64,000 nucleotides of DNA, from assembly GCF_000002075.1 (NCBI RefSeq), contig NW_004797350.1:1483107-1547106 (forward strand). Reading direction: 5' to 3'. This DNA is from Aplysia californica. Taxonomy: Eukaryota. A program made the position numbers and the translations under genes. Position 1 is the stretch's first letter, and every line of letters starts with the position of its first letter. Below, one piece after another: positions 27,256 through 58,600 of this stretch. The notes below the pieces were generated by a model. That model did not search any database. It saw nothing but the letters and a program-made list of their open reading frames with translations, and was not told where the DNA came from.

Positions 27256-29187
27256 TACTATTATTATGAGCCCAAAAATCTAATGGTTTCCGCTTGTTGT
27301 GCAGAAATGATATTTGGAATCTACTTGGATACAACTAGCCGTGCAGATAAGTTTCTTAAAGTGTCTTTTAATGTTTATGTAATCATTTCAGGCTTTGTAA
27401 ATCGATGCCAAATTTGCGAATCGAAAGGAAGAAATTCAAGATGTCCGCTTGCTGCTTTACTTCACTTGTTGAATCTCGCGGGCCCGAGAATGACCGTGGT
27501 TTCTGTTATTTTTTTCTTTACGCTGTGTTGGACGGTTGAAATTGTGACGCATGCCTTTTTATTCACTTGTCTTAGACTAACGTTTCGTTGCAAATTTTTT
27601 GGGTTGTCTTCTTTGGCTGTACTGTGTTCTCAGTTTGATCTATTTATGATGCTGTCGGAATTGGACAAAAAGCGCCATCTGTATTTCAGCTGATGGTCCT
27701 TGATGTGACCAAGGGAGACGACCTTTTGTGTGTTTTCTTGTTTCCTGTGTAAAAGAGGCGGTTCCAACAAAATTGGAGATTCCGATTCCCACCGGCCTTT
27801 TAAAATAATTAAATTTTTATAAAAATAGTGTCCCATCGACCGACAAGTATATAAAAAATATGGAGGGGGGTGCTAGTTTTATTAAATGTGTGCTTGTTTG
27901 TAATTGTTGTGCCATGGATGGCTTTTGAAACAGTCATACTGTTATTGTATGTCATTCAGTTATAATATTAATACACCATCTCATCTTATTATATTATAGT
28001 TATAGTCATGTCATAGTCTATAGTAGTTTGTGCTGACTGCTGTACTCCACTCCCTTACAGGCCAGTTTTGCTATGGATTATCATGTCTAGTTTGGAGGGT
28101 TTGGATATTAGAATTTTGGGTAAGATTGAAGAATACCGGACCAGCGGACTGACTTTGCCTATGTCTCAACCTTAGGAATTCATAATTTCCCCGTTTTTAA
28201 TATCTCTCAATGGAGAATCTCGGACCGGTAGATCTATTCATTAAATTTTGTCAGGGGGGAGACCCCCCTGAACCCACCCGCCCCACTTTCTCGGGCAATA
28301 ATGTACGAGTGGTCCGGTATTCTTCAATCTTCCCGAATTTTGAAAGGTTTTAAAAGTTACACGGGGGGGGGGGGGGGGTAACTTCAAAGCGCCGCTAAGA
28401 AATAGCCTCTATTGAATTGTGGTGTCATGGGAAATTACGATATTAAGCCTATGATTATGTTGGAAGATGCTTAAACTTGAGAAACGCAGTTGCGAGCGCC
28501 GTAAAACCTCTACTAAAACTAACTAAACTTGAGAACAGGCAGACCAACTTAGTAACACCCATAAATCTATCTTTTCAGAAAGTACAATAATAATAAAATA
28601 ATTTCATTTACATTCCACATAGCCGTGCTTTATAGCTTGCTCTCTTTGCCTTTTCAACTTGTTTTGCATTCAGCAATGGAAATAACTCTTATTCAAAAAG
28701 GATCTCTAAGTTTTTTTAGGTGCCATGTCTTTATTGCTGTAGATGGAATTACAAGTTCAGTGCAATGGATATAAACTTATATATTTTTGTCATGAAATTG
28801 TATTGCTCACTCATGGGTTACTCTTCATAATCAGAGGAAAAAGTATTTAATGACACAGTCTTTTTCTATTACACTTACAGCTGCCAATCAGTGGTTTGTA
28901 CCGGCGGTGAGAGGAGACATCCCGCCAGGCTGTGCTGCTTACGGCTTCATCTGCGATGGTACCAGAATTCTTGTGTTCGGTGGAATGGTGGAGTATGGAA
29001 AGTACTCGAATGAACTGTATGAGCTTCAGGCGTCCAGATGGGAATGGAAACGACTCAAACCCAAAGCACCGAAAAGTGGTCCTCCTCCCTGTCCTCGGCT
29101 TGGTATGATAACTTGTGGCTGGTTTTTTTGGGGGGGGGGGGGTTGTGGGTTTTTTTTGTCTGTAGGGTACGAGCTTTCCCGCTCACC

Positions 29188-29272
<85 letters not shown>

Positions 29273-32200
29273 GTAGCTAAAGATGCATACTTACTTTATG
29301 TTTGTGTGGTATAAAGATGCTTTATGTTTGTTGTTACAATGGGACAAAATGCATGTGGCTTGGGGGGTGGCAAAGAACTACAAAGCTATGACATGTTTTC
29401 TTTCTTTCCAAACCTTGTTGTAAAGAGAACTGACTAGCAAAAAATAGTCTGGTAGAGAGTTTATATTGAAAGTATCAACTTGCAGCGCCAGATAGCTGGT
29501 GTCATGAAAATTGCTGAGTGTTGTAATACTAGGTGGAAGATAATGAGAACAACTCGGCTCATGCATGCCCATGGGCATTTATATTGCACAGAGGGCAATT
29601 ATTCACTGGTTATATCGGGCATTGTTTATATTGTGTGTGCCAACTGATTTTTTGTGTGATTTGTCTCTATTTGCTTCATTTGCTCTTCCTCAGGTCACAG
29701 TTTCACCCTCTTGGGGAACAAAGGATATTTGTTTGGAGGCCTTGCCAATGACAGTGAAGATCCAAAAAACAATATTCCCAGGTGAGGGATTGACCTTAAT
29801 TCCAAATTTTATGGCACTTTTGCCCAAAGTGGTTTAATTGGCATCTTTGGATTTTTTCCCTCTACTTTTGCACTTCTCTCATTGTGTGAAGTACATTATA
29901 CCTCTGTAGTGTTAGTGATGAACATCTTATATAAGGCTTGTCTGGTATTTTTCAGTTTCTTACACGTTGATGATAATTCCCCATGTGTATATCTCCCCAT
30001 AGGTACCTGAATGACCTCTACACCCTAGAACTTCGACCCTTGTCAAACCAGCTGTCATGGGATCTCCCCTCTATTGTGGGCGTGCCCCCGCCTCCCCGTG
30101 AGTCACATTCAGCCGCTTCATACGCAGAGAAAGATGGCAGGAGGCCACGTCTCTTCATTTACGGTGGTATGAGCGGCTGCAGATTGGGTGATCTTTGGAT
30201 GCTTGATGTTGGTGAGTATTTGTTATGAGGTTGTTTATGTCTTTACCACTAAAGTTTTATCTCTACTGCATATTCATAGTCATTTTTTTTTAATCAAAAG
30301 AGTGCTGTTGTAGAATTATCTGACAAAAAATGGTCTACTCTTTGTGTGTCCCATTGGTGTGTATGTCATGAGAGATGTCTTTTCTCCTGGTTCGACTCTC
30401 TTCTCTCCACACTCAACCGAACCATTTCAGTATCTATTTTCACATTTTCAAAACATTTATTCTTCTCGTGCATAAAGTATTGACAACTTTTTTCCCCCCT
30501 TGACTTACTATTTCAGAATGCATGGCATGGGTACAGCCTACTATTTCAGGCATGCCTCCACTGCCTAGAAGTCTGCACTCAGCTACAGTGATTGGCAACC
30601 GTATGTTTGTGTTTGGAGGATGGGTGCCACTGGTCATGGATGATGTCAAGGTGGCCACACACGAGAAAGAGTGGAAGTGCACAAACACACTGGCTTCACT
30701 GAATCTGGGTATGGGTTCTGTCCGTTTTTCTCTCTATTTCTTGGGGGGGGGGGGGGGGGGGTAACTTCAAAGCGCCGCTAAGAAATAGCCTCTATTGAAT
30801 TGTGGTGTCATGGGAAATTACGATATTAAGCCTATGATTATGTTGGAAGATGCTTAAACTTGAGAAACGCAGTTGCGAGCGCCGTAAAACCTCTACTAAA
30901 ACTAACTAAACTTGAGAACAGGCAGACCAACTTAGTAACACCCATAAATCTATCTTTTCAGAAAGTACAATAATAATAAAATAATTTCATTTACATTCCA
31001 CATAGCCGTGCTTTATAGCTTGCTCTCTTTGCCTTTTCAACTTGTTTTGCATTCAGCAATGGAAATAACTCTTATTCAAAAAGGATCTCTAAGTTTTTTT
31101 AGGTGCCATGTCTTTATTGCTGTAGATGGAATTACAAGTTCAGTGCAATGGATATAAACTTATATATTTTTGTCATGAAATTGTATTGCTCACTCATGGG
31201 TTACTCTTCATAATCAGAGGAAAAAGTATTTAATGACACAGTCTTTTTCTATTACACTTACAGCTGCCAATCAGTGGTTTGTACCGGCGGTGAGAGGAGA
31301 CATCCCGCCAGGCTGTGCTGCTTACGGCTTCATCTGCGATGGTACCAGAATTCTTGTGTTCGGTGGAATGGTGGAGTATGGAAAGTACTCGAATGAACTG
31401 TATGAGCTTCAGGCGTCCAGATGGGAATGGAAACGACTCAAACCCAAAGCACCGAAAAGTGGTCCTCCTCCCTGTCCTCGNNNNNNNNNNNNNNNNNNNN
31501 NNNNNNNNNNNNNNNNNNNNNNNNNNNNNNNNNNNNNNNNNNNNNNNNNNNNNNNNNNNNNNNNNNNNNNNNNNNNNNNNTGTTGGTAATGGGTTGTTTG
31601 TAAATATTAAATAGCCATCCTATACTTTAATTGAATTTTCACATGTTTAATGTAAATTATGGAAAAATTGTTCATCTTCCGTTTGTTTGTTATTACAGAA
31701 ACAATGACATGGGAACCTCTCATTTACTCAACTCTTGGTACTTTCTTCTTTAGTGCTTCCAAAATTTCCCCTTGGAATTGGTACCTTTACCATTTTTCCA
31801 GGTTTTAGAAGTCTCTACTTTGCTGTTTATCTTGAGAATTTATGCCTGAAGTCATGTTACCTGTTTTGCCACATTTTCAAAGTTTCAGATTAGTATCCAA
31901 TTGTTAAGTTTTGTCTTAGTTTCACCTTTGAAATGTTGGTAATGGGTTGTTTGTAAATATTAAATAGCCATCCTATACTTTAATTGAATTTTCACATGTT
32001 TAATGTAAATTATGGAAAAATTGTTCATCTTCCGTTTGTTTGTTATTACAGAAACAATGACATGGGAACCTCTCATTTACTCAACTCTTGGTACTTTCTT
32101 CTTTAGTGCTTCCAAAATTTCCCCTTGGAATTGGTACCTTTACCATTTTTCCAGGTTTTAGAAGTCTCTACTTTGCTGTTTATCTTGAGAATTTATGCCT

Positions 32201-35200
32201 GAAGTCATGTTACCTGTTTTGCCACATTTTCAAAGTTTCAGATTAGTATCCAATTGTTAAGTTTTGTCTTAGTTTCACCTTTGAAATGTTGGTAATGGGT
32301 TGTTTGTAAATATTAAATAGCCATCCTATACTTTAATTGAATTTTCACATGTTTAATGTAAATTATGGAAAAATTGTTCATCTTCCGTTTGTTTGTTATT
32401 ACAGAAACAATGACATGGGAACCTCTCATTTACTCAACTCTTGGTACTTTCTTCTTTAGTGCTTCCAAAATTTCCCCTTGGAATTGGTACCTTTACCATT
32501 TTTCCAGGTTTTAGAAGTCTCTACTTTGCTGTTTATCTTGAGAATTTATGCCTGAAGTCATGTTACCTGTTTTGTCACATTTTCAAAGTTTCAGATTAGT
32601 ATCCAATTGTTGGTAATGGGTTGTTTGTAAATATTAAATAGCCATCCTATACTTTAATTGAATTTTCACATGTTTAACGTAAATTATGGAAAAATTGTTC
32701 ATCTTCCGTTTGTTTTTTATTACAGAAACAATGACATGGGAACCTTTGGCCATGGAAGTTTTTGAGGATGCTTTGCCCAGAGCTAGAGCAGGCCACTGTG
32801 CTGTGGCTATCAACACCCGTCTCTACATTTGGAGTGGTCGAGATGGCTACAGGAAAGCTTGGAATAACCAGGTTTGACTTTTTGTCTTTATGGTCTACCT
32901 AAGTTTCATATGAGGACACCGGTTTTAGTTTTGTTTCAAACAATGATTGATTAAAAACATAGGTTGTTCACTTAAATCTGTAAGTTCCTTGTCCTGTGCC
33001 AGCCCCATCTGTCCATGATGTTCACTATTGCAGAAATGAGATGTGTGCAGAGTATGATAGATCCAGCACCTTTTTCTGCTTTCAGTGTGTCTATGCACAT
33101 GTCTATACTTTTTTGATAGACTTATGATTGAAGTCATCGGGCATGCAATTGCTTTATATTTATGGTATTGCCTGAAAGTGTAAACAAGAAAAATGTTTTT
33201 CGTGGTAATTCCTAACACCTTGTTTCACTGCTTTTTATTTATACAAATTCATTTTATCTTTGTCAAAACAGGTTTGCTTCAAGGATCTCTGGTTCCTTGA
33301 GACAGGTGAGTTTTTCATTGGAAGTAAATATATGATTGAAATTTGTGTTTAAAAAAGGATTCTGAATGTAATAAGTGGAAATAATTTCGTCTAGTCATTT
33401 GATGTGAATGACTTTATTGTTAGTTCTGTATGTATTTGGTTGAAACAGTTGTATGGAAGTTAGTATTATATTAGAGGATTGGGAGAAATAATTGTTTCTT
33501 TTTTCAGTGGCATGAGAGAGAACAAAACATATTCATGAAAGTCTTCTGTAAATTTGTATCACTTAGAGTGTCAAATGAGGGTCCGACCAGAAAGAGATAG
33601 GCTTGTTTCTTATGGCTTTTGTTTATTGAAAGCCCGCAATTGTTTACTGAGTGAGCCAGTTGCTAAGTTAAAGCTGAGGTTTACTGGGTTTTTTATTCTT
33701 TTGGATTTCTTTTTAGTTCTCGCAGAATAACACCCATGTATGTACACACACAAATGATTCCTCTCATGACCTCCCCCTCCTCTTTCTTCACCTTGTCAAC
33801 AGAAAAGCCACCAGCCCCTTCCAGGGTCCAGCTGGTGCGCGCCAGCACAAACACACTGGAGGTGTCATGGGGCTCGGTGCCCACTGCGGACGCCTACCTG
33901 CTCCAGCTGCAGAAGTACGACCTGCCCCCGTCCACCTCAGCGGCCACCAGCACCACCTCGGCTGCTGCCACCACCCCCGCCATCACGGCTGCCCCGGCCA
34001 CCCCCACCACACCCACCCCCGCCCCCGTCACTCCTACAGCAGCCGTCACACAGACCAGGCCCCAGTTCCAAGTGACTGGACAGCCTGGCATTGTCCGCAC
34101 ACCCACGGCCGGTATGTGCTGTCATTTTTTTAAACGTTCATTTTGTGTGTGTGTGGTTTTATGGGGGGGTTTTTCCTGTCATCGTCTTCATGTCAATTTT
34201 CATCTACAGTTGTAAGATATGAAGTTCTTACACTAAAAGTTGCATAGCTGCCAACCAGTGGGTAAAAAATGTATTAATACATTTATGAGGGTCTGAGTGT
34301 GTAAGTACGTTTTTGTGGAGGAAACTACATATTTTGTTTCCAGTATTGCTCCTCACTGACTTTTCAATGCTGACAAAAAATTATAGCTTTCAAAACAGGA
34401 TTTGTGAATGCCCACGGTCGGTTGGAGAGATCCGTTGCTGCAGGTGCATTTTGAATAGCTTTAATTTATTAAATGCAGAAAAGTGTGTGTAAAGTCGGGG
34501 GGGGGGGGAGATTACTTGTCTAATGCCCACCATCTTGACTCGTGATATAGGTGGGGTGTGGGGATTGTTTAAGAAAGTTGGGAGCTATGAAGTTGTGACT
34601 AAAGAATTTTAACTCAGTAGAGGTCTTGTGTTCTTCAAATGTGTGATTGTGTATATTGTGTTACTTGCTGTGTCTTTCTTTCTTTCTTTTTAAAAATGAA
34701 ATATTTATTTCCATTACCTCACAGCAAGTTTTTCTGAAAAAAATGTACACTTACTACTGAGTGATGTTCTATTCACATAGCACTTACTTCATGTAAACTT
34801 ACTCCTTTTTGTTTGAATCTGGCTGTCTCATAATGAACTTGCTGTGTCTAGATCACCCATTACCACTAGCATATATATTTTTACGTAGATTTTTCTTTTC
34901 TTTTATTGACTGCACTCCAGATCTGTAGTTGGAGCTGTTTTGTAATTTGTTTGTGTGACGCTGGAGTAGTACTTTGTGTACACTCATGTGGACACTGAAT
35001 ATTTAATTTCCCTTTTTTAAAACTTTTATTACATCCCCTAATTCTTATAATTTACTGCTGTTGGTTTATGGAATGAGTCCTTCAAAGGTTAAAACTGCTA
35101 TAGGGAAGCTTGCCGTCAAGAATTAAGTATTCAGACTTTACATAATTCACCATTTTGATCATTTAGTAAGTGTGCGCCTGTGATTGGATGAGAATTACTG

Positions 35201-44200: not shown

Positions 44201-47200
44201 AATCTTTGCATCTTTAGGTTAGTGGCATTCAAACTCAGCATTTAAGATAATGGCGCTCTTTTGTTTTTAGCTCAACAATGTTTGTTGATCTCTTTGTTTC
44301 AGCCCCCAAGGGCAGCACGGGCAGCCTGAATCAGCCCACCAAGATCATCACAAGTGTGCCCAAGCTGGCGGGCCAGTCTGGTAATACACAGTTCATCGTG
44401 GTCAGCCCCCAGAGTGTGGCGGGAGCTGTGGCAGCAGGTCAGTGCTAGGAAATTAACAACCTCGTCTTGCTCTTTTTATTTTGTACCTCAGCCTTTTCTT
44501 ACTGTTTGTGAACTATATTTCTCTCTGGTGTTTTTGTTTTTCTTACTTTTTTCATACCTTAAATGACTGTTATTGTGTGGATGTGCCTCTCTTTAAACAA
44601 ACAACTAACGTGTGAAAGTGTTGGATGAAGAATACAACTTGTACTGTATAGCCGTGTCTGAAGCGTGTTGTTTCCGGCTCTAACTCCCGTTTCTTCGTTG
44701 TCCTCCTCACAGGCAACAAGCCAGCTCAGGTGTCGGCCATCTCATCCGGAGGGAACATCATCTCTCAGGCTGGCAAACCCGTCATCACAGTCATTTCTGG
44801 AGGTAAGGATGGGAGTGTTGACTCCTAGGTTTTGGTAGTTGGGAGGTGTTCTGAAGAGTTCTTGCCTCTTTCGTTGTGGTACATTTTTATGGATGTGTGA
44901 TCCTTATTGTGAAGCCTGGCTGAACTCTCTTAACTCTACAATGACAATTAAGCTTTGTTGATATATCTCAGGGTGACATTTTACCTAAAATATCTATAGT
45001 TTGGATATATTCTGGAATTGTATTAGTGCCCAGTCCCAGGTGTACATTAGGGGAAGACTAAGAATGATAAAACAAAAGAATTTAGACATTCATGGTTCTA
45101 TTAAGGGGGGGGGGGGGGCGCTACACCCCCAAAATCAAAACTCAGCTCAAAATCATGGAATTTGAGTTGTAGGCATTTTTAGCTTCCTCAGCTTCTCCTA
45201 CAACTATTTCATGGCATAAGAACCCCCAAAAACCATATTTTTTCCCATACTGGGCCTGTTTGTAACCGCCATTTCCTCATAAAGTCAGTATTTTATTTTT
45301 CTTTATCGGCCGTTTTCTCAAAATGCGACTTTTCTCTATACTTTTTTGAATAACTCCACCATTTTGCACAGAATGAAGAGAAGAGGTAATACTAAAAATT
45401 TGTCTGTTGAATTTTTGATATATGGAATAGATTTTTGTTTATGGTGTCTGGAGTGTGGATTTTCACGGATTTTTCGCGAACTTGAATGCTACTTCTAAGT
45501 CGATTAGGGAAAAAACAACAGACAAATTTTTAGATCTAATGTTTGTGAACACGCATGCAAAAAAGCAATCAATTTCCATGAGCGATAAGTGCGGTATTCA
45601 TTACGTAAGACATGTCAATAAAATCAAATATGGCGGCGTATCAGTGGAAACGAAACTTTTTTCTCAAATTTGATTGCGGATTTTAAGACTCCTTACTATG
45701 CTTGTTATGTGTGTGAAATTTGGTAAAATTCGGTCCAGTAATAAGCGAGATGGCCTCCAGGTGTAGCCCCCCCCCCCCCCTTAAAGTTTTGTTATCGATT
45801 CTTTAGCCCCTCCCTCCCCAATTTCTCTTTGCACATTAATTGTATAAGCTCTCACAGTTTAAAATCTTCTCCTTGATTTCTCTCCCTAGGCTCCACATCT
45901 GGTACGCCCTCAGTGACTCCAGCCACTGGTCACACCCTGGGCACTTCCCCGGCCATGCGTGTGGTCAACAGCAACGCTTCCACCATCTCCCTCATTACCC
46001 AGGCCACCAGTGAGGCCGGATCAGGGGCCGCCACAGCCACCATTGGTGGCCGCCAGATAGTGACAGTCCCTGCAGGCCAGGCCGGTTTGACGGGTGCCAA
46101 GGGTCCCGTCCAGATCACCATCACTCCCGCCAACCGTGGCAACATCTCCACGGTCACACTTCCCTCGTGCATACGTCAAGTAGCTAAACCGGTCGTGGTG
46201 GGGAACCCATCGGCCAACGGCACTCAAGTTGTCAGTCTCGGCGGAATGGGCACGGCTCAAGTTGTGGCGGTGAACCCGGCCCCTGCTGCCATGGCAGACC
46301 AGGCTCAGGTGGCAGAGGCTGTTGGTGAGGCTGGAGAGGGTGACGGCCAGCAGGTACTGCAGCAGTTTGATGGAGCCGCCGATGACGATTGTCTGGAGAC
46401 GGTAATTGTTGACGAGGAGTTTACCGAAGACGAGAGCCAGTATATCACATCGCCAGATTTTTGTCTGGATGGTTGTGTCGAAGAAGATGACACAGAGTTC
46501 CGGGTTGAGGACACATACATGTTCCCAGACACGGGGGATCATGGGTATGCATATACGCATGAGGACAGGTACGACAGTGATGAAGACTTTCAGATGCCTC
46601 AGTTTGACGGTGCTGGCGAGGAAGGAGGTGAGGACGATAAGGAAGGAGAGGAGGGTGTGAAACAGGAAGGAGAAGAAGGAGGCGCGGACCAGCCGCAGGA
46701 AGCAGAGCAAGAACAGGCGGAAGGCGTGGTTGGTGAGGCAGGCGAAGAGGCCATGGAGGGTGAGGGCGCTGCGTCAGGGGAGGTCCAGCCTCCGGCTGAG
46801 GATGCTATGGAGGAAGGTGATGGTGGTGTGGCGGGAGGTCTCGATGGTCTGGTAAACCCCGCAGTCGCAGCCGACTCCACTAATGGCGCGGAGAGTCAGC
46901 AGCTGACCGAGGCGGAGTTACAGCAGCAGGCAGAGAGTGCTCTAGAGGCGTTGGCCGAGGCGGGCGGTGTGCTGGGTGACCAGGCCGTCATGGACAACCT
47001 AGAGGGGGTCCTGGCCCAGCAGGCACAAGCGGCCCTGGATGCGGCCAATCAGGCGGCCACAGCCCAGGCGCTGGGTGAGTTGGCGGCGCAACACGCTGCT
47101 GAAACCCCCGAGGAGTTGGGAGATGTCAAGCCAGAAATAAATGAAGAGGCGGCACCGACAGCTGACCACTCGACGGGTACAGATACGCCCATGGACACTG

Positions 47201-47438
47201 ACGCAGCAGACCTGGTCCCTAAGGAAGAACCTCCGGACGAGGCTCTGGCATCCCTTGCTCAGAGTCTCGCCAACGCTGCCAATGGTGGTGCAGACGGATC
47301 TGGTGAGATTTCTGTTCCGTTTTTGCTTTGTTTTTTTTTATCTTTAGAGTTGGCCTTGTGCTACAGTGGTTTCTTTAAATTGATGTTGGTTGTTTCAACA
47401 TGAAGGATCTAGTAATTGTGTGCTCTCTGGAGGATCTC

Positions 47439-47469
<31 letters not shown>

Positions 47470-50400
47470 TTCTTCTGGCGCTGTTGCTTCATGAACGGTC
47501 AGTGATGCCGACAGCACGCAGGAACTCAACACTAGCTCGGGGTCCTTAAAAAGTGTAAATGGTAAGTGAAATCTGTTACTGACCCAGAGAGCATGTTTTA
47601 CAGTCATGTCTTAGTGGTCAGGTGGTTTGGTTTTTGTTTCAAGTGCTGTTGTAATGTGAATATAATGTTCCTAGTACATGTATGTTTTGGGGGGGGGGGG
47701 TTCAAAAATTTGTTTTTAATTACCATTTTGCTGGACCCTTTTTTTGAATGACGTGGCTAGGCCCGTCTACCCTATTGTGTTGTATTATCGCTGGTCCATG
47801 AAATCCTTAGTCCTCAAAAGTCTGAAAAGCTTTTGGATACCAAAGATTTAAAATATCCACATGGTTTTTTAATTACATTGTGCACGTTTTTAATTTTTCT
47901 CAGATCCCTTAGCGACACTGGCATCAGCTGCCATGTCATCAGCCCCAGTGACGACGTTAAAAACCTCAGACGCCAGCGTGGGTGTGAACAACGACGTGGG
48001 GCAGGAGGAGGCTCGTCACGAGGTCAAGCAGGAGAAAATTGTTGTGAAGCGGGATGCCCAGCAGTGGTTCGACGTGGGCTTTATCAAGAGCACCTCTTGC
48101 ACTGTCTCCCACTACCACCTCCCCTCAGAGAACGGCCAGGGCAACACTGATGTGAGTGTAAGGATTTGGGTTTTTTCTCCTTCCTTGCTTTGATATGTTT
48201 ACTTACTCATTTTTTTTTTTGTTGTGCGTTTACATGATTGAAAATCTTTATTTGTTTTGAAAATGAGGGCAGATGAATGTTATAGTCTCTCCAGTATGGT
48301 TTTTCTGAGACTTTAAAAAGAAGAGATACTGTGCTTTCACATGCAATGGTTCTTCGAATATTTTGCCAATAGATGTTTTTACATTAACTTTTCTTTTGGG
48401 GAGGGGGGATTGTCCCTTTTTACCATGGCAGTATAAATCTTGGGTCGTCTTTTTGGATGGCCATTTAGTACAGAGGTATTCATCGATTTAACCCTATCCG
48501 TACACCTGAGGTCATTTCGTACCCCAGGGATTGCTCTTTGTTTTTTTTTCATTTAAGAATACTTCTAGTGTAAAAATTTATTTGAAACTTTCAGTATTGC
48601 TGAACTATTCATTTTTGACAGATTGCTGTGTAAAGAAAATCACACCAATGGTCTCATTCTAAAACGACCATTTTGGCACCCGATGGGGTCATTTGTGCCC
48701 CCACTCTCCAAAGAGGAAAAAAACCTCAGTTATTCTGGTATTATCCGTATCAAGCGGGGTAACAAACGACCCCAATGTATCCCCTGCATCGAGTATTATA
48801 GTAATGGCTTCGTAAAAATTTCCCAGCATCTGGATTGCTGCTGGGTATCGTTCACGCTCTTGTGGTTGAGCTGGAGATATCCGAAGGCCTACAAAAATAA
48901 TTATACAGTATAACACGGATAGGTCGAACACAGAAGACCCGAAACCACGCTTCCGTCGAACTGTGCCTGTGGTCCCGATTTTTCTTTTTCTTTATCTTTA
49001 TAAGGAAATCACGTAAAGCTCAAACACAAACACGGAATAGTCGAACTAATTACGCCGCCGTAGAGGTCGAAAGTTGATGTCCTTTGGGGTGCACTTGAGA
49101 CAGAATAACAATAATAATCACAATTTTTTAAAATATGGGAAAAAACAGGTTCGGTGAAATACCACCTCACACATATACACACACACTCACCCCTCCACAG
49201 AAGCAGCTAGCTATGCTATTTTTAGCATGCTACTCGACACACATGTGCATACCTGGGCCCTTTGTCTAGCTAGGCTGGTGAGGAAGGATTGTGCATCACT
49301 GTCTATTGTCTTGCCCCAAAGGTAGCAATCTTTGTTGCTTCCCCTGGTTCTTGATGCAGCCGATGCTATAACACTGTTCACGGATCCCTCGAACTACCGA
49401 GGCCGGTCCTGACAAATTCGAGGAGCAGTGTGTGTTATACTGTACTACGCTTTGTATTGAGACTGGTTGTTTTTTTTCTTTGCCAAGTTGCCCTGAGACT
49501 GGTAAGTAAATGAATCTCTCTAAGTTTGTTTTTATTTGCCTGTTTTAGTTCTCGCGGTTGCTTTTTCTTTTTGCCTTTGCTATCGTCTGCCTTTTCTCCT
49601 TCTACTCTTTGTTTATCAATCTTGTGTCACTCTTCCTGTCATTACAATGTCGTATTTTGGCGTACAAAGTCAAATGAATGTAGATCGAACCACACAATAG
49701 AAAATTGATGTTGTGATTGAAACTGATATTATGTAACGAAATATATAAGTTATCCCCGTAATGAATTTGCTAGGCCCAGATCTAAGCTACACTTCAGTAG
49801 GCCTATGCAGTTTTCTCGCCCCCTTTATACAGAATGCAGATCACTTGCCACCCTCTAATAATTGTAATCGATTCTAACTGCACACTGGCGAAAAAGCACT
49901 GAATACTTGTAAATCTAAACATCAAGCCTGGTTGTACTGGTGGAAAGGCAGTCGTATGTCGCTTATCTGAGAATCTGTTCGTATGATTATGTATTGCCTG
50001 CATTCGAACCAAGCTGGTGTCAAATTTGAAGAGAGAGGACTGAGGGGAGAAGGAATAGTGACAGAGAGAAGACTAAATCGTTTCTTTTTCTATTTTCCCC
50101 TCAATGTTTAGATGGAACGACATAATGTCTTCAACCAGTATCCAGTTGTATGGGGTGGTGATGATGATGATGGGTATGGACAGGAGAGTGATGTGGCTAG
50201 TGAGTCGGAGGATGATATTCTGGGAAACGAAGCAGAAAAGAGTGATGTGGAGGAAGTGAGTGGAGAAGAAGAGGTGGAAACTGAAAGCGATAATGGTGAC
50301 GATCAGCTGGAAGTGGTGTTTCAACCTGTTGAAATGGGAATGCTTGATATGCCACATGCAGCTGGGGAACCTGCATTGTCAGACAGTGAAACGGGAGTAC

Positions 50401-53400
50401 CTCTGCACTATGCAGGCAAGGATGGGATGCTGTGGTCCAGGGTTGCTCCTACACAAACACCATCTTTCAACATATTCAAGCCTCCAACTGGGCAAGTGAT
50501 GAATCCAAGATATTTGCTGACAGTAGGCGCCACTTACAAACGTTTCATCACTGCCAAGATGATAGAAAGAATCGTCTTATGCACCAATAAGGAAGGAGAA
50601 AAGGTTGAGGGTAATAAGTGGAAAAAGACAGACAGTACAGAGGTTGAGGGGTTCATTGGTTGCCTTTACCATTTGGGGGCCAGGCGCGATGCCCGCACCC
50701 CAACCACTGTCTTGTGGAACAGGACCGATGGCAGCAACTTGGTACAGGCTTGTTTCAGCAGGGCTAGGTTTTTAAAACTATCCCACCACCTGAGATTTGA
50801 TGACAAGGACACTCGCAGAACTAGGCGGGTAGTAGATTGTTTTGCCCCCTTGCGAGAGCTATGGGATGACTTCAATGACAACTTGTGTAGAGAGTATACT
50901 CCGGGCCCTACCCTCACAGTGGATGAACAGTTGATTCCATGGAGGGGCCGCTGCTCATTTCTCCAATATCTTCCGTCTAAACCAGACACATTCGGGATAA
51001 AGATCTTTTGGATCTGTGACGCAGAGAATGGGTTTCCTCTTCATGGTGAACCGTATCTTGGCAGAAAGGGGACGAAAAGACAACAAAATCTAGAAAGGGA
51101 TACAGTAATAGCGTTGACCCAGCCCTACTTCGGAAGTGGGCGCAATTTGACTGTGAACAATTTCTTTACAGACCTGACCTTGAGCACTTACCTCCTCTCA
51201 AACAACATCACCTTGGTGGGAACAGTTAAAAAAACCAGGCGCTTCCTGCCACCAGAATTTAAGAGTGGAAAGGGATTGGGCAAAGGAGATGCCATCTTTG
51301 CCTTTCAGAAAAAGGCCACTATTTTAGCTTTCAAGTCAAACAAGAAGGAACATGTTGTGCTGCTCAGTACCATGCACTGTGCTGACAAATTTGACGAAGA
51401 GGTCAACAAGCCTGAAATTGTTACATCCTACAATTCCACGAAAGGAGGTGTAGGCACAATGGACCAAATGTGCCACGCCCTCACCACCAAGAGAAAAACC
51501 AACCGATGGCCAATGCTCCTCTTCTACAATATGCTAGACCTCGCCTCTGTAGCATCTTTGAATATCTGGAGAAAGATCGCCCCAGAGGACAAACTGTCCA
51601 AAGAGGACAACAGAATTCTGTTTAATTTAGCTTTGGCAAAGGAGCTGACAGGACCTCTTCTACAAATACGACACACTGTCCCAAATCTTCGCAGAGATCT
51701 GAAGCACACCATTGCTATTGCCATCAAGGATTGTGGACTCCAGCTTCCAGAGCAGCCAGTGGACGAAGAGGTCGGCTCAAGCCGAAAGCGTGGACGATGC
51801 CATGTTTGTCCTCGGAAAGATGACTCCAAGACAACCCAACACTGCTCTCTTTGCCATAGACACACTTGCTCGAAGCATATATGGAAAATCTGCTCATCGT
51901 GCCTCGCTAATGAAGGTAAGAAAAGGTGGCGGTAGCCTACATCATTGTTGATTGGTCTGATCTTCCTGGGTTGTTTTTTTCTACAGTAGAACATGACTAT
52001 AGCGGGACCTTACTGGAATCCCCTTTATTTTTCTATGCAAACTCAATTGCCTGTGCTCGGGTTTAGTGGGGCAAGGAAAGGTCCGAACTCAGATACAGCG
52101 GGAGAGATCGAGTGAGTTCTAGCAGGGGGGAAGAGGGTTGGGGGGTGAGGGGGCTTTAGGCAGGCTCCAAACAGGCAGTCAACGGTGCAGTGTTGTGATT
52201 GGCCAGTCCAGTTATAAGTGAGGTGGGGCAGGCGACAGAGAGAGATGGTGCGGAGAGACACGTTACGTGAGCCAATCCAAAAGTGATGTGCCGTGGCTTA
52301 GACGCTCAGGATGAGAGCATATAGGCCTAGGCTAGGCCAAAAAGTAAAAGAAGAGGAGAGCATGTAGTGTGTGATTCCTAATTCATTGAATTGCGATCAT
52401 TGATGCTCATAGGTATACGCACGCATCCACTTCACCAGTTCTACAGTAGGTACGATAGACAGCACTAGCAACAAGACCGAGGAAAAGATGGCTTCCAACA
52501 CAGGCAAAAGGAAATGCTTCTCACCTCAATTAACGGCCGAGATAATCAACGACGTTGACAAGAAAAGGAAGACTAATCTAAAGCGTAAATTTTATTTATT
52601 GAAGGGAGGTAATCATGTGGATTTAAAAAAATTGGGGGAATAATTTCCCCTTTGCATGCCTACAGCAGGAACTCGCCTTCAGCGGGATTTTTCTTGTAGA
52701 ACCAAAAGTCCCACTATAGCCGTGTTCTACTGTACTGTAGTTTTCCTTCAGCTTTCACACTCTTGTTACAGTTGTTGCACTCTGGTGTGATTTCCTCTTT
52801 ACCCTACTTTCCTGAATGCCTTTTGCTAGATATCATCTTCTTTGTCTACTTTCTTCATTTGAAAAGAGCTTATCCCCATAAAAATAATCTCTTCAACTGA
52901 AGTACGATACACCTGGTGCAAGTGCTACATGCAACAGATCTACCGTACAAAAAGCATGTAAACGAGCCTATGGTATGTACGCTGTTTTTTTTAATGTAGC
53001 ACATGCACAAGGGGTAGCCTACTCTAGGTGCAGATGGTCAGGTTTCCTACTTTGCTCAGTATTGCGCTGTAATTGTTCCATGCTCCTTCTTTTCTTTGTT
53101 ACTATTTATCACCCTCAAGGGGATTTTGTGGATGGTTTGCGGTAGCTCTGGTGTAGTCTGCTCTTTCTATGTCTTTCTACGTCTTGCTGTTGTCAGAATC
53201 TACTTCCTGGAGCTGAATGGCCTAACAGTAACTTATAGTGTTGGAAAAGCCTTCCTCATTAAAGTTAAAACATATACCTGTACAACATACACAGCATTAT
53301 ACCAAATACTCTATTCATAACTTGACAAACACAAAAAGATGTGATCTAGAAGAGCGTCTGTGTTATGGTGGAATCAAGTGTTTGTCAATTTTTGAGCATA

Positions 53401-55555
53401 TGGGGTTACTGGTATTGTTTTAAAGCCTGTTCATTTGCCTTTCTTTTGGTGAAAAAAATATTAATCTTTGTTGAATAGAAGTCGAAATATTTGCAATTAA
53501 AGGAGGTCAGGGTCGCCTGGTCTCAGAGATGAAATTAGCAAGAAAATGGCCATCAAAGTTTGCAATTTCCATAGCTTGAGAGTCTTTGGAAACTGAAAAT
53601 TGACATTTTTTGTGCCTTTAATCAATGTTTTTCAGTAACATCTACACAGAAAATGTGATTTTAAATGGATATAAAAGGTGTTAAGCCAAAGAAAGAAAAT
53701 TTTGTAAAAATTATTCAACGGTCAGAAAAATGCCAATTTCTTTGATTTCATTATTTTGATGAGCGCCTGATTTCACTACGATGCCTCACATTTAATTATT
53801 TTTTCAGGGCTCTGCGTCTGGGGTCCTTCCCTTCCCCCACAGGGTCTGATGTCCCAAGAGACTAGCCATCTCGACGAAGGTCACGAAATGGTTCTGGGGA
53901 ACAAATGAAAATGTTCAACTGCATATTTTTTCTTGTTGGTTAATAAATCATGTTCACTAAGAAGTACAGTATCTCAGTTTCTCACTTTTTGTATGGCTAT
54001 TATTCACTAGACTGGAAAATGACATGTTGTTCCCCCACCAGGGCAGTGCTACCGACTGAAATGTCTTCAGGCCATTCCCAACGGGGGGGATACCCCCCGA
54101 GGCGGTGCCACTGACTGTCTTTAGGCTATCCCAAAGGGGGGACATTTCTTGTTCATGCATAGTAGAATTGTAAATGGGCTGATTCATCAATGTCACGCTC
54201 ATAACTGTGCCTGATCTACAATTGGGAACTGCTGCTTTTTCTTTCCTAATCCTTACTATTGTCATTTTTGCTCTACTTCTTTTGTATGTTTGTCACACTC
54301 TTGTGACCCACTATTTCCAGGGTGCTTTAATAGTCGAAGCAGACTTTGTGCTGTTGAAGCTAGAGAGGTGAGCAGAGAAAGTCTGATTCCCTGTAAGGAC
54401 TTCTCTCTTGACATCCACCCCTTGGCGTTCATATGCCCTTATGCAGTTGCGAGCGCCGTAAAATCTCTTCTAAAACTAAAAGGAGGAATATGTTTTTATG
54501 CACAGTAGAATTGTAGATGGGCTGATTTATCAATGTCGTGCTCATACTACTGTGCCGCAACAACATAGGGGGGACCGCTGTTGATATCCACCACTTGGCG
54601 CTCATGCGACCTTTTGCAGTTGCGAGTGCCGTAAAAAAAACTTTCTAAAACATAAAACAGTTAAATTGTTTCTGTTTAAGGGCACGTGGGTGGCGGGCGC
54701 TCTGGTGTGGTGTTCTTCTTTGTGTTTGCTACTATTGCTTTCATCTGTTTCCTAGTGTTGAAATTACATTACAGTGCCGATCGTCCCTTAAAACCCCAAT
54801 AAACTCTTAACACGCTGTTTCGGGTTGCCAGAGTCTGGCCACATACTGTTACTGTAGGTGATACAAGTGAGTCACAGCTACAGGTTGCGACTTCAGTGCT
54901 TTCTTGTCATATTTCCTTTTTTTAAACAGTGAAAACAGTTCATAACAAAGAGTGATCTTAAGAAGAAATCACATTTTCACTTTTGAAAAAAATTGGAGAT
55001 ATGACAAGAAAGCACTGAGGTCACGAGGTGGTAACCTGGTTCGATCCCGTAGGTCCATAGTCATGAGCGAATGGTTCCTTTGTTGGCTTTCGAAGTCAAA
55101 ATGACTTACCAAGGGATTATCGTCATGCTGGTAGTCATAAGCCCCCAGCTGGCCGCTCCTCCTCTTCGTCATGGTGGACTGCAGCCCCCACAGTCTCTCT
55201 GACCTCAGTAGGCCAGACTCTCGGACTTGCAGCACCTCTCGCATCAACTGCCATCTGTTCCAACGGGCCTGTCGGGACAGATAGGCTGAAATGACAAAAC
55301 TAATAACAGTATAACACGGATAGCTCAAATTCTTCCTGACCGGCCTCGGTATTTCGAGGGATATCTTACAAAGATAGAAAAGGGAAAAAACGGGACTGCA
55401 AGCACAGTTCGACAGACGCATGATTTTGAGTCATTTGTGTTCGACCTATCCGTGTTATACTGTATGAGACTTTGGGTTTGGGTTGACACCACGTTTAAGT
55501 TAAACACACATAATAAATAATAAGTAGGTTAGTCTTTTCATAGGTGGAGCACTTG

Positions 55556-55604
<49 letters not shown>

Positions 55605-58600
55605 TCTCTCTCTCCCTCTCCCTCTCTTTCTGCCCCACCCCCAGTTAGTGCACAGGGCAGTGAAGAAAAACCCAGAAAAGTACAGTAAAGTCGATGGGTC
55701 TTGCCAATTTTATGTCACTATCGACATAGGCGTCATTATAAGAGAGGGCTAAACTTGAGTGGAAGGAGCAGAAAAAGGACGATAGCAAAGTGCAAAAAAA
55801 AAAAAAGAAAACAACACAATAGAACCCCCTTCCTTAGTCAAGAAGAGTCTCAAATAAACAACTGGGTCGGAACAACTAATGCAAGATGAATTCAAAACTA
55901 GATCTACGTTTACGATTCTCACAATGAGTGTAATCGATTACATACCCTGTGAGAAAGTTTTGTCCCGCCTCAAGTCTAGAACTGAGAGAGAGAGAGCGAA
56001 GTTCTAGAACTGAGAGAGAGCGAAGTTCTAGAACTGAGAGAGCAAACTAATTTTGGGCCAAACTTTCTGTAACGAGTATAAAAGCTTGTGCGACATTAGT
56101 GCTAACCGGTTGAACCTTCGACACATCCACAAAACCAATAACAAAAACAAACTAACCTCTGTTCGCTTAAGGCTCTGTGCAACACACTTGCCGCCATCTT
56201 GGATTGTAAAGCCTTTCGATTCCAGCGTGAGTTTGATTACTTGGGGTCGTTAGTTACCCCGCAGGGTACGGATCGGAATAACAAGTAAATTTCCTCTTTC
56301 CTCTTTGGAAAATGGGGGTACTGAGTACCCCGCATCGAATGGATACGATAGTAAAACATAGTGTACGGATACGGTTAATTATTTCATTGCTTTCTTTGGT
56401 GGCTGCCATTTGTCCAGATCCTGAATTTCTTGAGAAAAGATTTTCTCAGAAGGGCATAGGTTTAAGTGGTCAGTCCTGGCTAGCAACAACGGAATGTTGA
56501 TAGAGTGTGAGACCTGTAAGCCTTGGCAGATGTGATCAAGTTGGCGGAGAAAGAAACAGAAGTAAACTTGTGAAGTATAGTGTGTGTCATTTCTTCTTTA
56601 ACTCATTAACCATAGCTTTCTTTCTCCATCTCAAGACCCGTCTGTGGTGTAGCGGTTAATAATTTTGCTATGGCATACAGGAGACCCAAGTTCAATTCTT
56701 GATTATGGAGAATTTCTATCAGTTGTCTGTCTTTCTTCTGGGATGCTGTATCCCTCTCAGTTAGGGTTGGCCTTGACAAGCACGGTCAAAGCCTGCCGAC
56801 TAAATGATCTAAATTGTGTTGATAGAGACGTAAAAACACCTACATTTGATTTTTTTTCCCTCTCTATGACAGGACATTGACGTGGTGAATGTGCCAGACC
56901 ACAGTGTCCTGAAAAGACAAGAGTTGCAGCCGGGCACTGCCTACAAGTTCCGTGTGGCTGGCATCAATGCGTGTGGCCGGGGGCCGTTCAGTGAGGTGTC
57001 TGCCTTCAAGACTTGTCTGCCTGGTTTCCCTGGAGCGCCTTCTGCCATCAAGATCAGCAAGGTGAGAAACTGTTTGATTCTGTCAGGTCTGAGTGTAGTG
57101 CGACTTTGCTGTCGAAATATCTAGTCTGAGGCATCTTCAATGTAGGTTTTCTCTTTTGCATCTGATTTTGTTGTTATGCAGAAAAACAAACAAGCAATTT
57201 TCGAAAGATTTATTCTTTTCACAACTTCTGCTATGCAGCTATTTTTAGTCGTTTAGAGGCCGTCGGGTGTAGTTGTATTGATTGCTTGGTTTTCAACGGG
57301 GTTTTTTTTTTACAACCAGGGTTAAGGTAGATGGTTGTAGGATGCCCTGATAAGCCCTACTTTTTTACCTTCCCTCTGTTGTTTCTGTCTGTTTTACTTT
57401 TCCCCAGCACTTAAGTACCATTATTGTGTCAACGAGCGTCTCTTTACTCCAACAAACCACAAAAAAAAGCCCCCAGCTTTAAGCATGACGTTTCCACATG
57501 TTTGTATCGTGTTGTTGTTTTTTGTCCCCACAGAGCAGCGACGGTGCGCACCTGTCCTGGGAGCCTCCCCAGAACACGGCGGGCAAGATCATAGAATACA
57601 GTGTCTACTTGGCCGTACGCAATCAAAACACGGAGACCAAGCCCGGCACACCTGCACAGCTTGCGTTTGTGCGCGTGTTTTGCGGGCCCCTTCCCTCCTG
57701 TGTGGTAGCCAACTCATCTCTCACCTCTGCTCACATTGACTACACCACCAAGCCAGCCATCATTTTCCGCATCGCAGCTCGCAACGAGAAGGGCTATGGA
57801 CCCGCCACACAAGTCAGGTGGCTGCAGGGTGAGTGTCTGAAGGCTTGACCAGGGCTTCCAGTCTTCCGCAATTTTGCGGATTTCCGCAAATTAGCAGAAT
57901 TCTGCAAATGGAAAAATTTCCGTAAAAATTTGTGCCCCCCCCCCAAAAATTATTTTCAAAAATGCGAAATACAAAATTTCCGTTATTACCAATAGTCAAC
58001 AAAGGCCAACCCATACCGGAAGTGCTCTTTTATTTGAAAGTATAGACAGTGTCTTTCACTTTCTAAAGCTCAAGAATCAGAGCACCAGCTCTGTAAACAA
58101 GAGGAAGAAATGACGATTATGGTTCTAGATCTATCGATCTTGGGCCTTCCAAGAAAAGAAAACTCTAAAGAGAGCTTGATTATTTTTTTTTACCAGACTT
58201 GTTTATTTGTAAGTATTGTTGTGGATTTAAGTTGATATAGATCTAGATCTAGATCTAGCTGTCCAGTTATTTAGATCTACATCTAGATCTAGACTAGATC
58301 TATATCTAGATCTAGATCAAGTCAAGCTGTTATACTGGATTCTGAATCTAGCTAATCTAGACCTACACCTTATGATGATTATTGTGCAAACCAACACAAG
58401 CAGAAAAAAGTTGAACATTAACTGTCAAGTTTTATAGATCTAGTTGTGGATGTACAGTATCTGTACAAGGGAGAAAGCATGGCTTTGGATTTGGAAATAT
58501 ATGGATTAACACAAGCAGAAAATTATGTAGGCTAGGTCTACGTTCTAGGTCTATGCAGTATGCAAGGTATGTTTTTTTTTCTCACTTATTTTCTTGTTAA

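Follow-up and report, generated by a model that had tools for sequence, protein, structure and literature searches.

The piggyBac transposase of T. ni has the aspartates D268, D346 and D447 as its active site and touches the DNA hairpin with K290 (PMC7351741), and these three aspartates are needed for all steps (PMC5381638). In primates, a piggyBac element in intron 5 of ERCC6 gave CSB-PGBD3, a fusion whose triad reads D270/N352/D467, whose pseudogenes are 88-90% identical (PMC2268245) and which binds 363 MER85 ends in vivo, with gene effects that tracked other sites (PMC3459987). Tetrapods have further host-transposase fusions, including KRABINER (bioRxiv 10.1101/2020.05.07.082677). Here we compare these systems with a locus of the sea hare Aplysia californica, contained in a window of 64,000 nucleotides (the whole stretch of DNA analysed: RefSeq assembly GCF_000002075.1, contig NW_004797350.1, positions 1,483,107 to 1,547,106 of the forward strand), in which a 7.9-kb piggyBac-derived element lies in sense orientation inside an intron of the gene for host cell factor 1 (HCF1). 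We put at about 50% the probability that the transposase exon of this element is a young HCF1-transposase fusion exon kept by the host, i.e., domesticated.

The element measures 7,883 bp between a TTAA at 48488 and a TTAA at 56375, and the following features mark it, the target-site duplications and terminal repeats being taken from the sequence itself.

48488-48491, no strand: left TTAA target-site duplication.
48492-48505, forward strand: left 14-bp terminal inverted repeat (TIR).
48508-48775, forward strand: left subterminal region with three palindromes of the GGGGT-N7/8-CCCC type (48508, 48685, 48756), by analogy candidate sites for the transposase's Cys-rich domain (CRD).
51982-52734, no strand: nested TA-flanked miniature inverted-repeat transposable element (MITE), present in high copy and carrying 20-23 near-private substitutions, from repeats and sequencing depth.
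56361-56374, reverse strand: right 14-bp TIR, with one mismatch at position 3.
56375-56378, no strand: right TTAA target-site duplication.

The subterminal parts of the two ends match each other in inverted orientation (48695-48775 versus 56241-56321, 74% over 86 columns), and both ends have GGGGT-N7/8-CCCC palindromes, three at the left and two at the right, which by analogy with T. ni may be CRD sites. In the DNA run X1, the transposase open reading frame (ORF) has a depth of 12.3 against 11.6 on the flanking exon, as expected for a single copy, while several nested blocks in both arms reach very high summed depth and the left end reaches ~5,400 at 48504-48509 against ~12 for single-copy DNA, a figure which is a summed depth and not a copy number. 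The MITE begins 47 bp past the ORF stop, with single-copy junction contigs. The preliminary description of this DNA had mentioned nested insertions and a terminal TIR mismatch, and both are confirmed, the former by the high-copy blocks of the 5' and 3' arms and by the TA-flanked element at ~51982-52734, the latter by CCCT at left versus CCGT at right (position 3). An extra contig over 51384-51749, different at 34 of 366 nt and with two 3-nt insertions, represents a relative of the ORF elsewhere in the genome, diverged by ~9%. Among its 24 listed sites, the MITE differs from at least 90% of the related depth at 20, and at 23 when the threshold is 75%, which amounts to a private change of at least 2.7-3.1% of its 753 bp; this nested MITE, the other nested repeats and the length of 7,883 bp indicate that the insertion is old. 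One high-copy repeat is present in both arms in opposite orientation (48903-49455 and 55294-55465), its left copy being split by a 379-bp insert (49005-49383).

The transposase itself occupies the following positions, with the residues and the CRD placed by alignment.

50112-51935, forward strand: piggyBac transposase ORF of 607 aa, with the fusion exon of the gene models at 50112-51915 (ORF list, Pfam, 6x67 alignment, RefSeq isoforms).
50922-50924, forward strand: D271 (T. ni D268), kept.
50988-50990, forward strand: T293 (T. ni K290, hairpin contact of the omega loop), changed.
51156-51158, forward strand: N349 (T. ni D346), changed.
51453-51455, forward strand: G448 (T. ni D447), changed.
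51798-51902, forward strand: CRD, C563-C597, with the eight conserved Cys/His kept.

The frame has no internal stop, matches Pfam DDE_Tnp_1_7 with an E of 5e-67 and is collinear with the T. ni transposase (6x67) over residues 31-597 (E 3e-87). Columns were counted in an alignment with 120 listed of 159 near-length homologs. Column 271 holds D in all 120, and the Aplysia protein keeps it (GAT); column 349 holds D in 118 (one E, one gap) and here reads N (AAC); column 448 holds D in 112 (five gaps, and G, N and K once each) and here reads G (GGC). At column 293, where every one of the 120 homologs has K or R, the motif KPDTFG places a T (ACA). D451 (GAC) is retained, and so are the 7 Cys and the His of the conserved CRD columns, whose TIR-binding role is presumed by homology to T. 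ni (PMC7351741). Two of the three triad sites are missing in only 6 of 240 homologs that span all three, a count made on pairwise BLAST columns of which some are possibly misaligned. Since the contigs of runs X1 and X20, which come from different studies, show no difference at codons 293, 349 and 448, the changed codons are not sequencing errors. The preliminary description thus read the frame correctly in its main points, namely an intact ORF with the first aspartate retained and the other two lost, a further substitution in KPDTFG and a whole Cys-rich domain; the alignment to T. ni piggyBac that it had proposed pairs D268/D346/D447 with D271/N349/G448. The locus has the TTAA duplication, the TIRs and a CRD-bearing transposase of the family and lacks its complete triad, so that the element should be called piggyBac-derived and not an active piggyBac. 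We have high confidence, judging from these residues, that the ability to transpose is lost, and this single copy, deprived of its triad, would be immobile.

The host gene and the exons that surround the element are placed as follows.

26822-60392, forward strand: HCF1 (HCFC1 orthologue), canonical coding span (tblastn of RefSeq isoforms; Kelch_HCF and fn3; 4go6 chains A and B).
47904-48157, forward strand: HCF1 exon upstream of the element, with phase-0 donors after 48151 and 48157, encoding the first ~32 aa of the C-terminal Fn3 (tblastn, 4go6).
49488-49501, forward strand: putative 14-nt exon with the stop of isoform X7, followed by a GTAAGT donor (only in-frame candidate; donor motif).
50090-50111, forward strand: polypyrimidine tract and TAG acceptor, phase 0 (motif; used by isoforms X1-X3).
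51916-51921, forward strand: internal donor GAAG/GTAAGA, six codons short of the stop of the ORF (employed by isoforms X1-X3).
53808-53947, forward strand: terminal exon of the fusion isoforms, with a stop ending at 53908 and AATAAA at 53942; also in isoform X6 (gene models).
56873-57061, forward strand: next canonical HCF1 exon, with the rest of the first Fn3, alternative to the transposase exon (phase 0; tblastn).

The pyrimidine tract and TAG stand directly before the transposase ATG at 50112, and this ATG, the end of the upstream exon at 48151 and the start of the next canonical exon at 56873 are all in phase 0. Among longer proteins, the single match was 'host cell factor 1 isoform X3 [Aplysia californica]', of 1,983 aa and 100% identical to the ORF, and the HCF1 cluster to which it belongs has 8 proteins, 7 of them from RefSeq (isoforms X1-X7). 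The ORF is 100% identical in isoforms X1, X2 and X3 (2009, 2007 and 1983 aa): their models go from the donor at 48151 or 48157 to 50112 and from the donor after 51915 to the exon at 53808, so they end in a terminal exon with both a stop and AATAAA, and the stop lies in the last exon. Isoforms X4 and X5 are canonical HCF1, isoform X6 skips the transposase and splices straight to 53808, and isoform X7 stops after two codons (...GNTD-LP*), probably in the 14-nt exon at 49488, the only in-frame candidate of the intron. RefSeq variant models rest on aligned RNA-seq. While the insertion, the acceptor and its phase, the lost residues and the open frame were observed directly, the splices from 48151/48157 to 50112 and from 51915 to 53808 are those of the gene models and were not seen in the reads used here. 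In the modelled fusion, residue 1373 is the last one from HCF1, so that only 32 residues of the match to the C-terminal Fn3 of 4go6 (1342-1565) precede the transposase; the fn3 match of the canonical protein is gone and the C-terminal Fn3 module replaced. The preliminary description had seen here a free-standing PGBD gene, a view that has to be revised: the frame is an in-frame alternative exon of HCF1, modelled in the three fusion isoforms. An extremely high-copy repeat (53366-53793) lies just upstream of the terminal-exon acceptor and has relatives at 12848-13252 and 22454-22869. Elsewhere in the gene, HCF1 exon 2 is found in an exact 735-bp duplicate (28363-29097 and 30746-31480) ending at an N gap (31481-31580), which is followed by three near-identical units of ~353 bp (31581-32745); the region 28363-32745 is probably an assembly artefact.

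CSB-PGBD3 (PMC2268245, PMC3459987) resembles this locus, as represented by the gene models, in many ways. In both, an intron of a chromatin regulator holds, in sense orientation, a TTAA-flanked element with its two ends kept, an in-frame acceptor just before the ATG makes the transposase an alternative to the canonical 3' exons, a host acidic region is joined to a whole transposase whose second catalytic Asp is an Asn, and the genome holds relatives ~90% identical and many related ends. The sense, in-frame intron insertion of that type is found here as such and the element-supplied 3' end in a variant form, according to the gene models. Unlike CSB-PGBD3, the host gene is HCF1 and the organism a mollusc, the third Asp and the K290 equivalent are also lost, nested insertions add ~5 kb, and the modelled transcripts leave the ORF at an internal donor and end in a new terminal exon rather than at a poly(A) site close by. 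Moreover, CSB-PGBD3 is as abundant as its parent form and conserved for 43 My, whereas the HCF1 fusion is known from the gene models of one species. With the tetrapod fusions (bioRxiv 10.1101/2020.05.07.082677) the locus has in common a transposon-supplied acceptor just upstream of the ORF and a parental transcript that is kept; those fusions were validated by cross-species dN/dS, whereas a single species is available here, and the partner is a Kelch/acidic co-regulator in place of KRAB. Compared to T. ni piggyBac (6x67; PMC7351741), the dimerisation/DNA-binding domain (DDBD), insertion domain, CRD, TTAA and internal palindromes are alike, but N, G and T stand in place of D346, D447 and K290, the TIRs have one mismatch and the element has three times the normal length.

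The case for retention by the host comes from the open frame and from where the changes fall. For an ORF drifting neutrally to 3% divergence, the probability of staying open is 0.040, 0.012 or 0.002 at assumed indel ratios of 0.03, 0.06 and 0.10, and at 2% divergence it is 0.12-0.02. A domain-skew test used 340 homologs (38 of them at least 58% identical, 243 both long and distant), left out the columns where the near clade itself differs and took a binomial p that allows for column conservation. Changes in the catalytic and insertion domains versus the rest of the protein were 7/50 versus 0/36 at columns conserved to 80% (p 0.028, 1 of 196 homologs as extreme), 8/56 versus 0/42 at 75% (p 0.010, 0 of 198) and 8/58 versus 1/47 at 70% (p 0.023, 0 of 199). 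The seven core changes at 80% are K293T, Y294F, D349N, N375T, Y407F, K413E and D448G; A180G, M215F, Y308F, S406A, K410N and Y457L, considered as decay, were dropped as common to the nearest clade. These data suggest a transposase half that is likely catalytically dead yet predicted to bind DNA, and likely kept open by selection. The preliminary description had recognized the pattern of domesticated PGBD genes: loss of catalysis with an open frame and preserved DNA-binding columns holds, with moderate evidence beyond decay, and domestication itself is no more than likely.

Several observations weigh against this reading. At the strictest columns the skew is not significant (3/38 versus 0/29 at 90%, p 0.20, 13 of 194 homologs as extreme; 5/46 versus 0/32 at 85%, p 0.098, 5 of 194); the skew and triad tests are post hoc, made after the data were seen, and among many decayed copies a scan would single out an intact one. 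Conserved columns changed overall by 8%, which is the expectation for a neutral drift of ~3.5-4%, and the selection signal therefore consists of the skew and the open frame, not of an overall deficit. Of the 36 full-length ORFs from 80 distant piggyBac loci, 8 have an acceptor-like sequence no more than 15 nt from their ATG, against 124 of 1,700 control positions (7.3%, p 0.004), an enrichment that fits the 'natural exon trap' view of piggyBac (PMC2268245); the acceptor of the HCF1 intron is probably an inherited piggyBac trait, and hence does not point to selection. In isoforms X6 and X7, HCF1 is cut short within the element, as noisy splicing would do.

Four sequencing runs were compared over 47900-54100, of which run X20 was taken as RNA by guess. 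The raw poly(A) runs X22 and X23 are uninformative, their depth being 0.15 and 0 in the bin of the HCF1 exon and below 1.2 in the ORF bins. The main contig of run X20 (4,958 nt, depth 46.8) matches the stretch in the upstream exon alone and departs from it at the exon edges; it is thus spliced and, by elimination, not the fusion. The ORF contigs have depths of 9.7, 5.5 and 14.3 against 2.6-5.4 for intronic pieces, no listed contig of the run spans 50050-50255, and no joint from 48151/48157 to 50112 is found among the 15 listed of 504 joints, a list swamped by repeats. In this sample, the fusion is at most a minor form. Although labelled as a different organism, run X20 is near-identical, with 0 differences in 1,278 nt of the ORF, and is not counted as a second species. 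A contrast of this ORF with noncoding DNA of the run (0/1,278 versus 2/665, p 0.12; 0/1,278 versus 6/1,051, p 0.008, with a piece reaching a high-copy repeat; the ambiguous piece 51652-52108 with its 4 differences omitted) was dropped as evidence of selection, being too weak and linked.

A rival reading is a neutral relic, i.e., a decaying intronic piggyBac whose inherited acceptor, common in piggyBacs, is used at a low, tolerated level, with the open frame and the Asp losses due to chance or ascertainment. We regard this as a tentative alternative which has to be taken seriously: the conserved-column change at neutral expectation, the non-fusion dominant contig, the ORF depth only ~2-3 times the intronic one, the truncating isoforms X6 and X7 and the lack of a cross-species copy among those searched for all agree with it. 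On the other hand, it requires survival of an open frame with a probability of 0.2-4% at 3% divergence, lower if the element is older, a change of at least two of three Asp (P 0.014 at 3%, post hoc) and 0 changes among 36 columns outside the core where 2-3 are expected (P 0.11-0.03).

Searches for relatives also bear on the question. No orthologue was found in protein collections whose sea-hare coverage is uncertain, the best identity being 72% or less apart from the window's own isoforms, which weighs somewhat against domestication; the close named transposase relatives are fragments from Elysia and Plakobranchus. Out of 6,140 candidates, the search among longer proteins retained just the fusion of the window itself, a weak indication that others are absent. 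A metagenome scan with the transposase protein alone gave no match, and one with the alignment gave 80 distant loci, 28-45% identical. A 62-aa Logan protein of the HCF1 cluster (P0129) is 95% identical to Aplysia HCF1, so the collection includes some close relative, yet it yielded no orthologous transposase. We found no published description of an HCF1-piggyBac fusion in Aplysia in the open literature, subscription papers being outside the search. In RefSeq, the fusion exists only as unnamed isoforms.

The same selection evidence would serve a free-standing domesticated PGBD gene nested in HCF1, having its own promoter, the donor at 49501 joined to the acceptor at 50112 and the native ATG, with the fusions as by-products. 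The ATG is indeed the native start of the family (M-x-R-x-N-[IV]-F in P0005, P0023 and P0025) and the donor at 49501/2 is strong, but the 7 RefSeq proteins of the cluster include no transposase on its own, and the protein collection lacks the 607-aa product; this gene is rather improbable. A role as a trans-dominant repressor of the piggyBac family to which it belongs, with dead subunits that would poison dimers or block ends, appears very improbable: it agrees with the intact dimerisation and DNA-binding columns and with the abundance of related ends at 48504-48509, but the only ORF relative seen is the ~9% diverged one with two codon duplications, and no near-identical, recently active copy was seen.

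If the exon is indeed a host-kept fusion, the following scenario could account for it. A piggyBac inserted with a ready acceptor would have created an alternative HCF1 transcript; the catalytic core would then have decayed or been selected against, while the frame, the DDBD and the CRD were kept, and after the nested insertions the 3' end would have moved to the new terminal exon. The fusion would be a minor isoform beside canonical HCF1, keeping the Kelch, basic and acidic regions, losing most of the C-terminal Fn3 module and the tail and gaining DDBD and CRD. It may tether an HCF1-type co-regulator activity to piggyBac-end palindromes, its own and those of many related genomic ends, without cutting them. 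As the gene effects of CSB-PGBD3 track non-MER85 sites, the function of the HCF1 fusion, even if selected, need not run through piggyBac ends.

A more specific version of this scenario, which we consider unlikely, is that a conserved sea-hare fusion is cut by Taspase1 at QFD/G 978-981, freeing a protein of ~1,000 aa that would combine the acidic region of HCF1 with the dead piggyBac DNA-binding module. The large exon at 45880-47313 encodes QFDG at HCF1 residues 978 and 1057; the first lies at the basic/acidic boundary, where the content switches from 0-1 to 15-35 acidic residues per 100, and the second after it. In fly HCF, Taspase1 cuts between basic and acidic regions, and in human HCF-1 the Fn3 module keeps the N- and C-fragments together after cleavage (bioRxiv 10.1101/577890, PMC4840301). 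Both QFDG sites agree with the loose Q-x-D/G consensus; having Phe at P2, they do not fit the stricter Q[ILV]D/GVDD, and at the second site a disfavoured Glu is present (PMC3102056). Since the fusion breaks the Fn3 clasp, cleavage would free the C-terminal product and leave an untethered N-half of HCF1; the product would then be a protease-released, sequence-specific transcription factor aimed at many genomic piggyBac ends.

Two other features of the window deserve mention. A single-exon TMEM187 ORF (23234-24157, reverse strand, Pfam E 2.5e-66) is head-to-head with HCF1, a neighbour pair that presumably also exists in human. An earlier HCF1 intron contains a 684-bp inverted-repeat element (45101-45784) with perfect 19-nt arms starting with TTAA and a G run.

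If the locus is neutral, it usefully illustrates how leaky splicing into a transposon can give rise to an artefactual 'isoform X1' in RefSeq. If the fusion is selected, the CSB-PGBD3 route would have been taken independently a second time, by a mollusc and with a different, broadly essential co-regulator, and piggyBac exon trapping followed by loss of the second Asp would be a recurrent path beyond vertebrates. The fusion may be young enough to catch domestication in progress, in an organism that is a standard model of neuroscience with deep RNA data.

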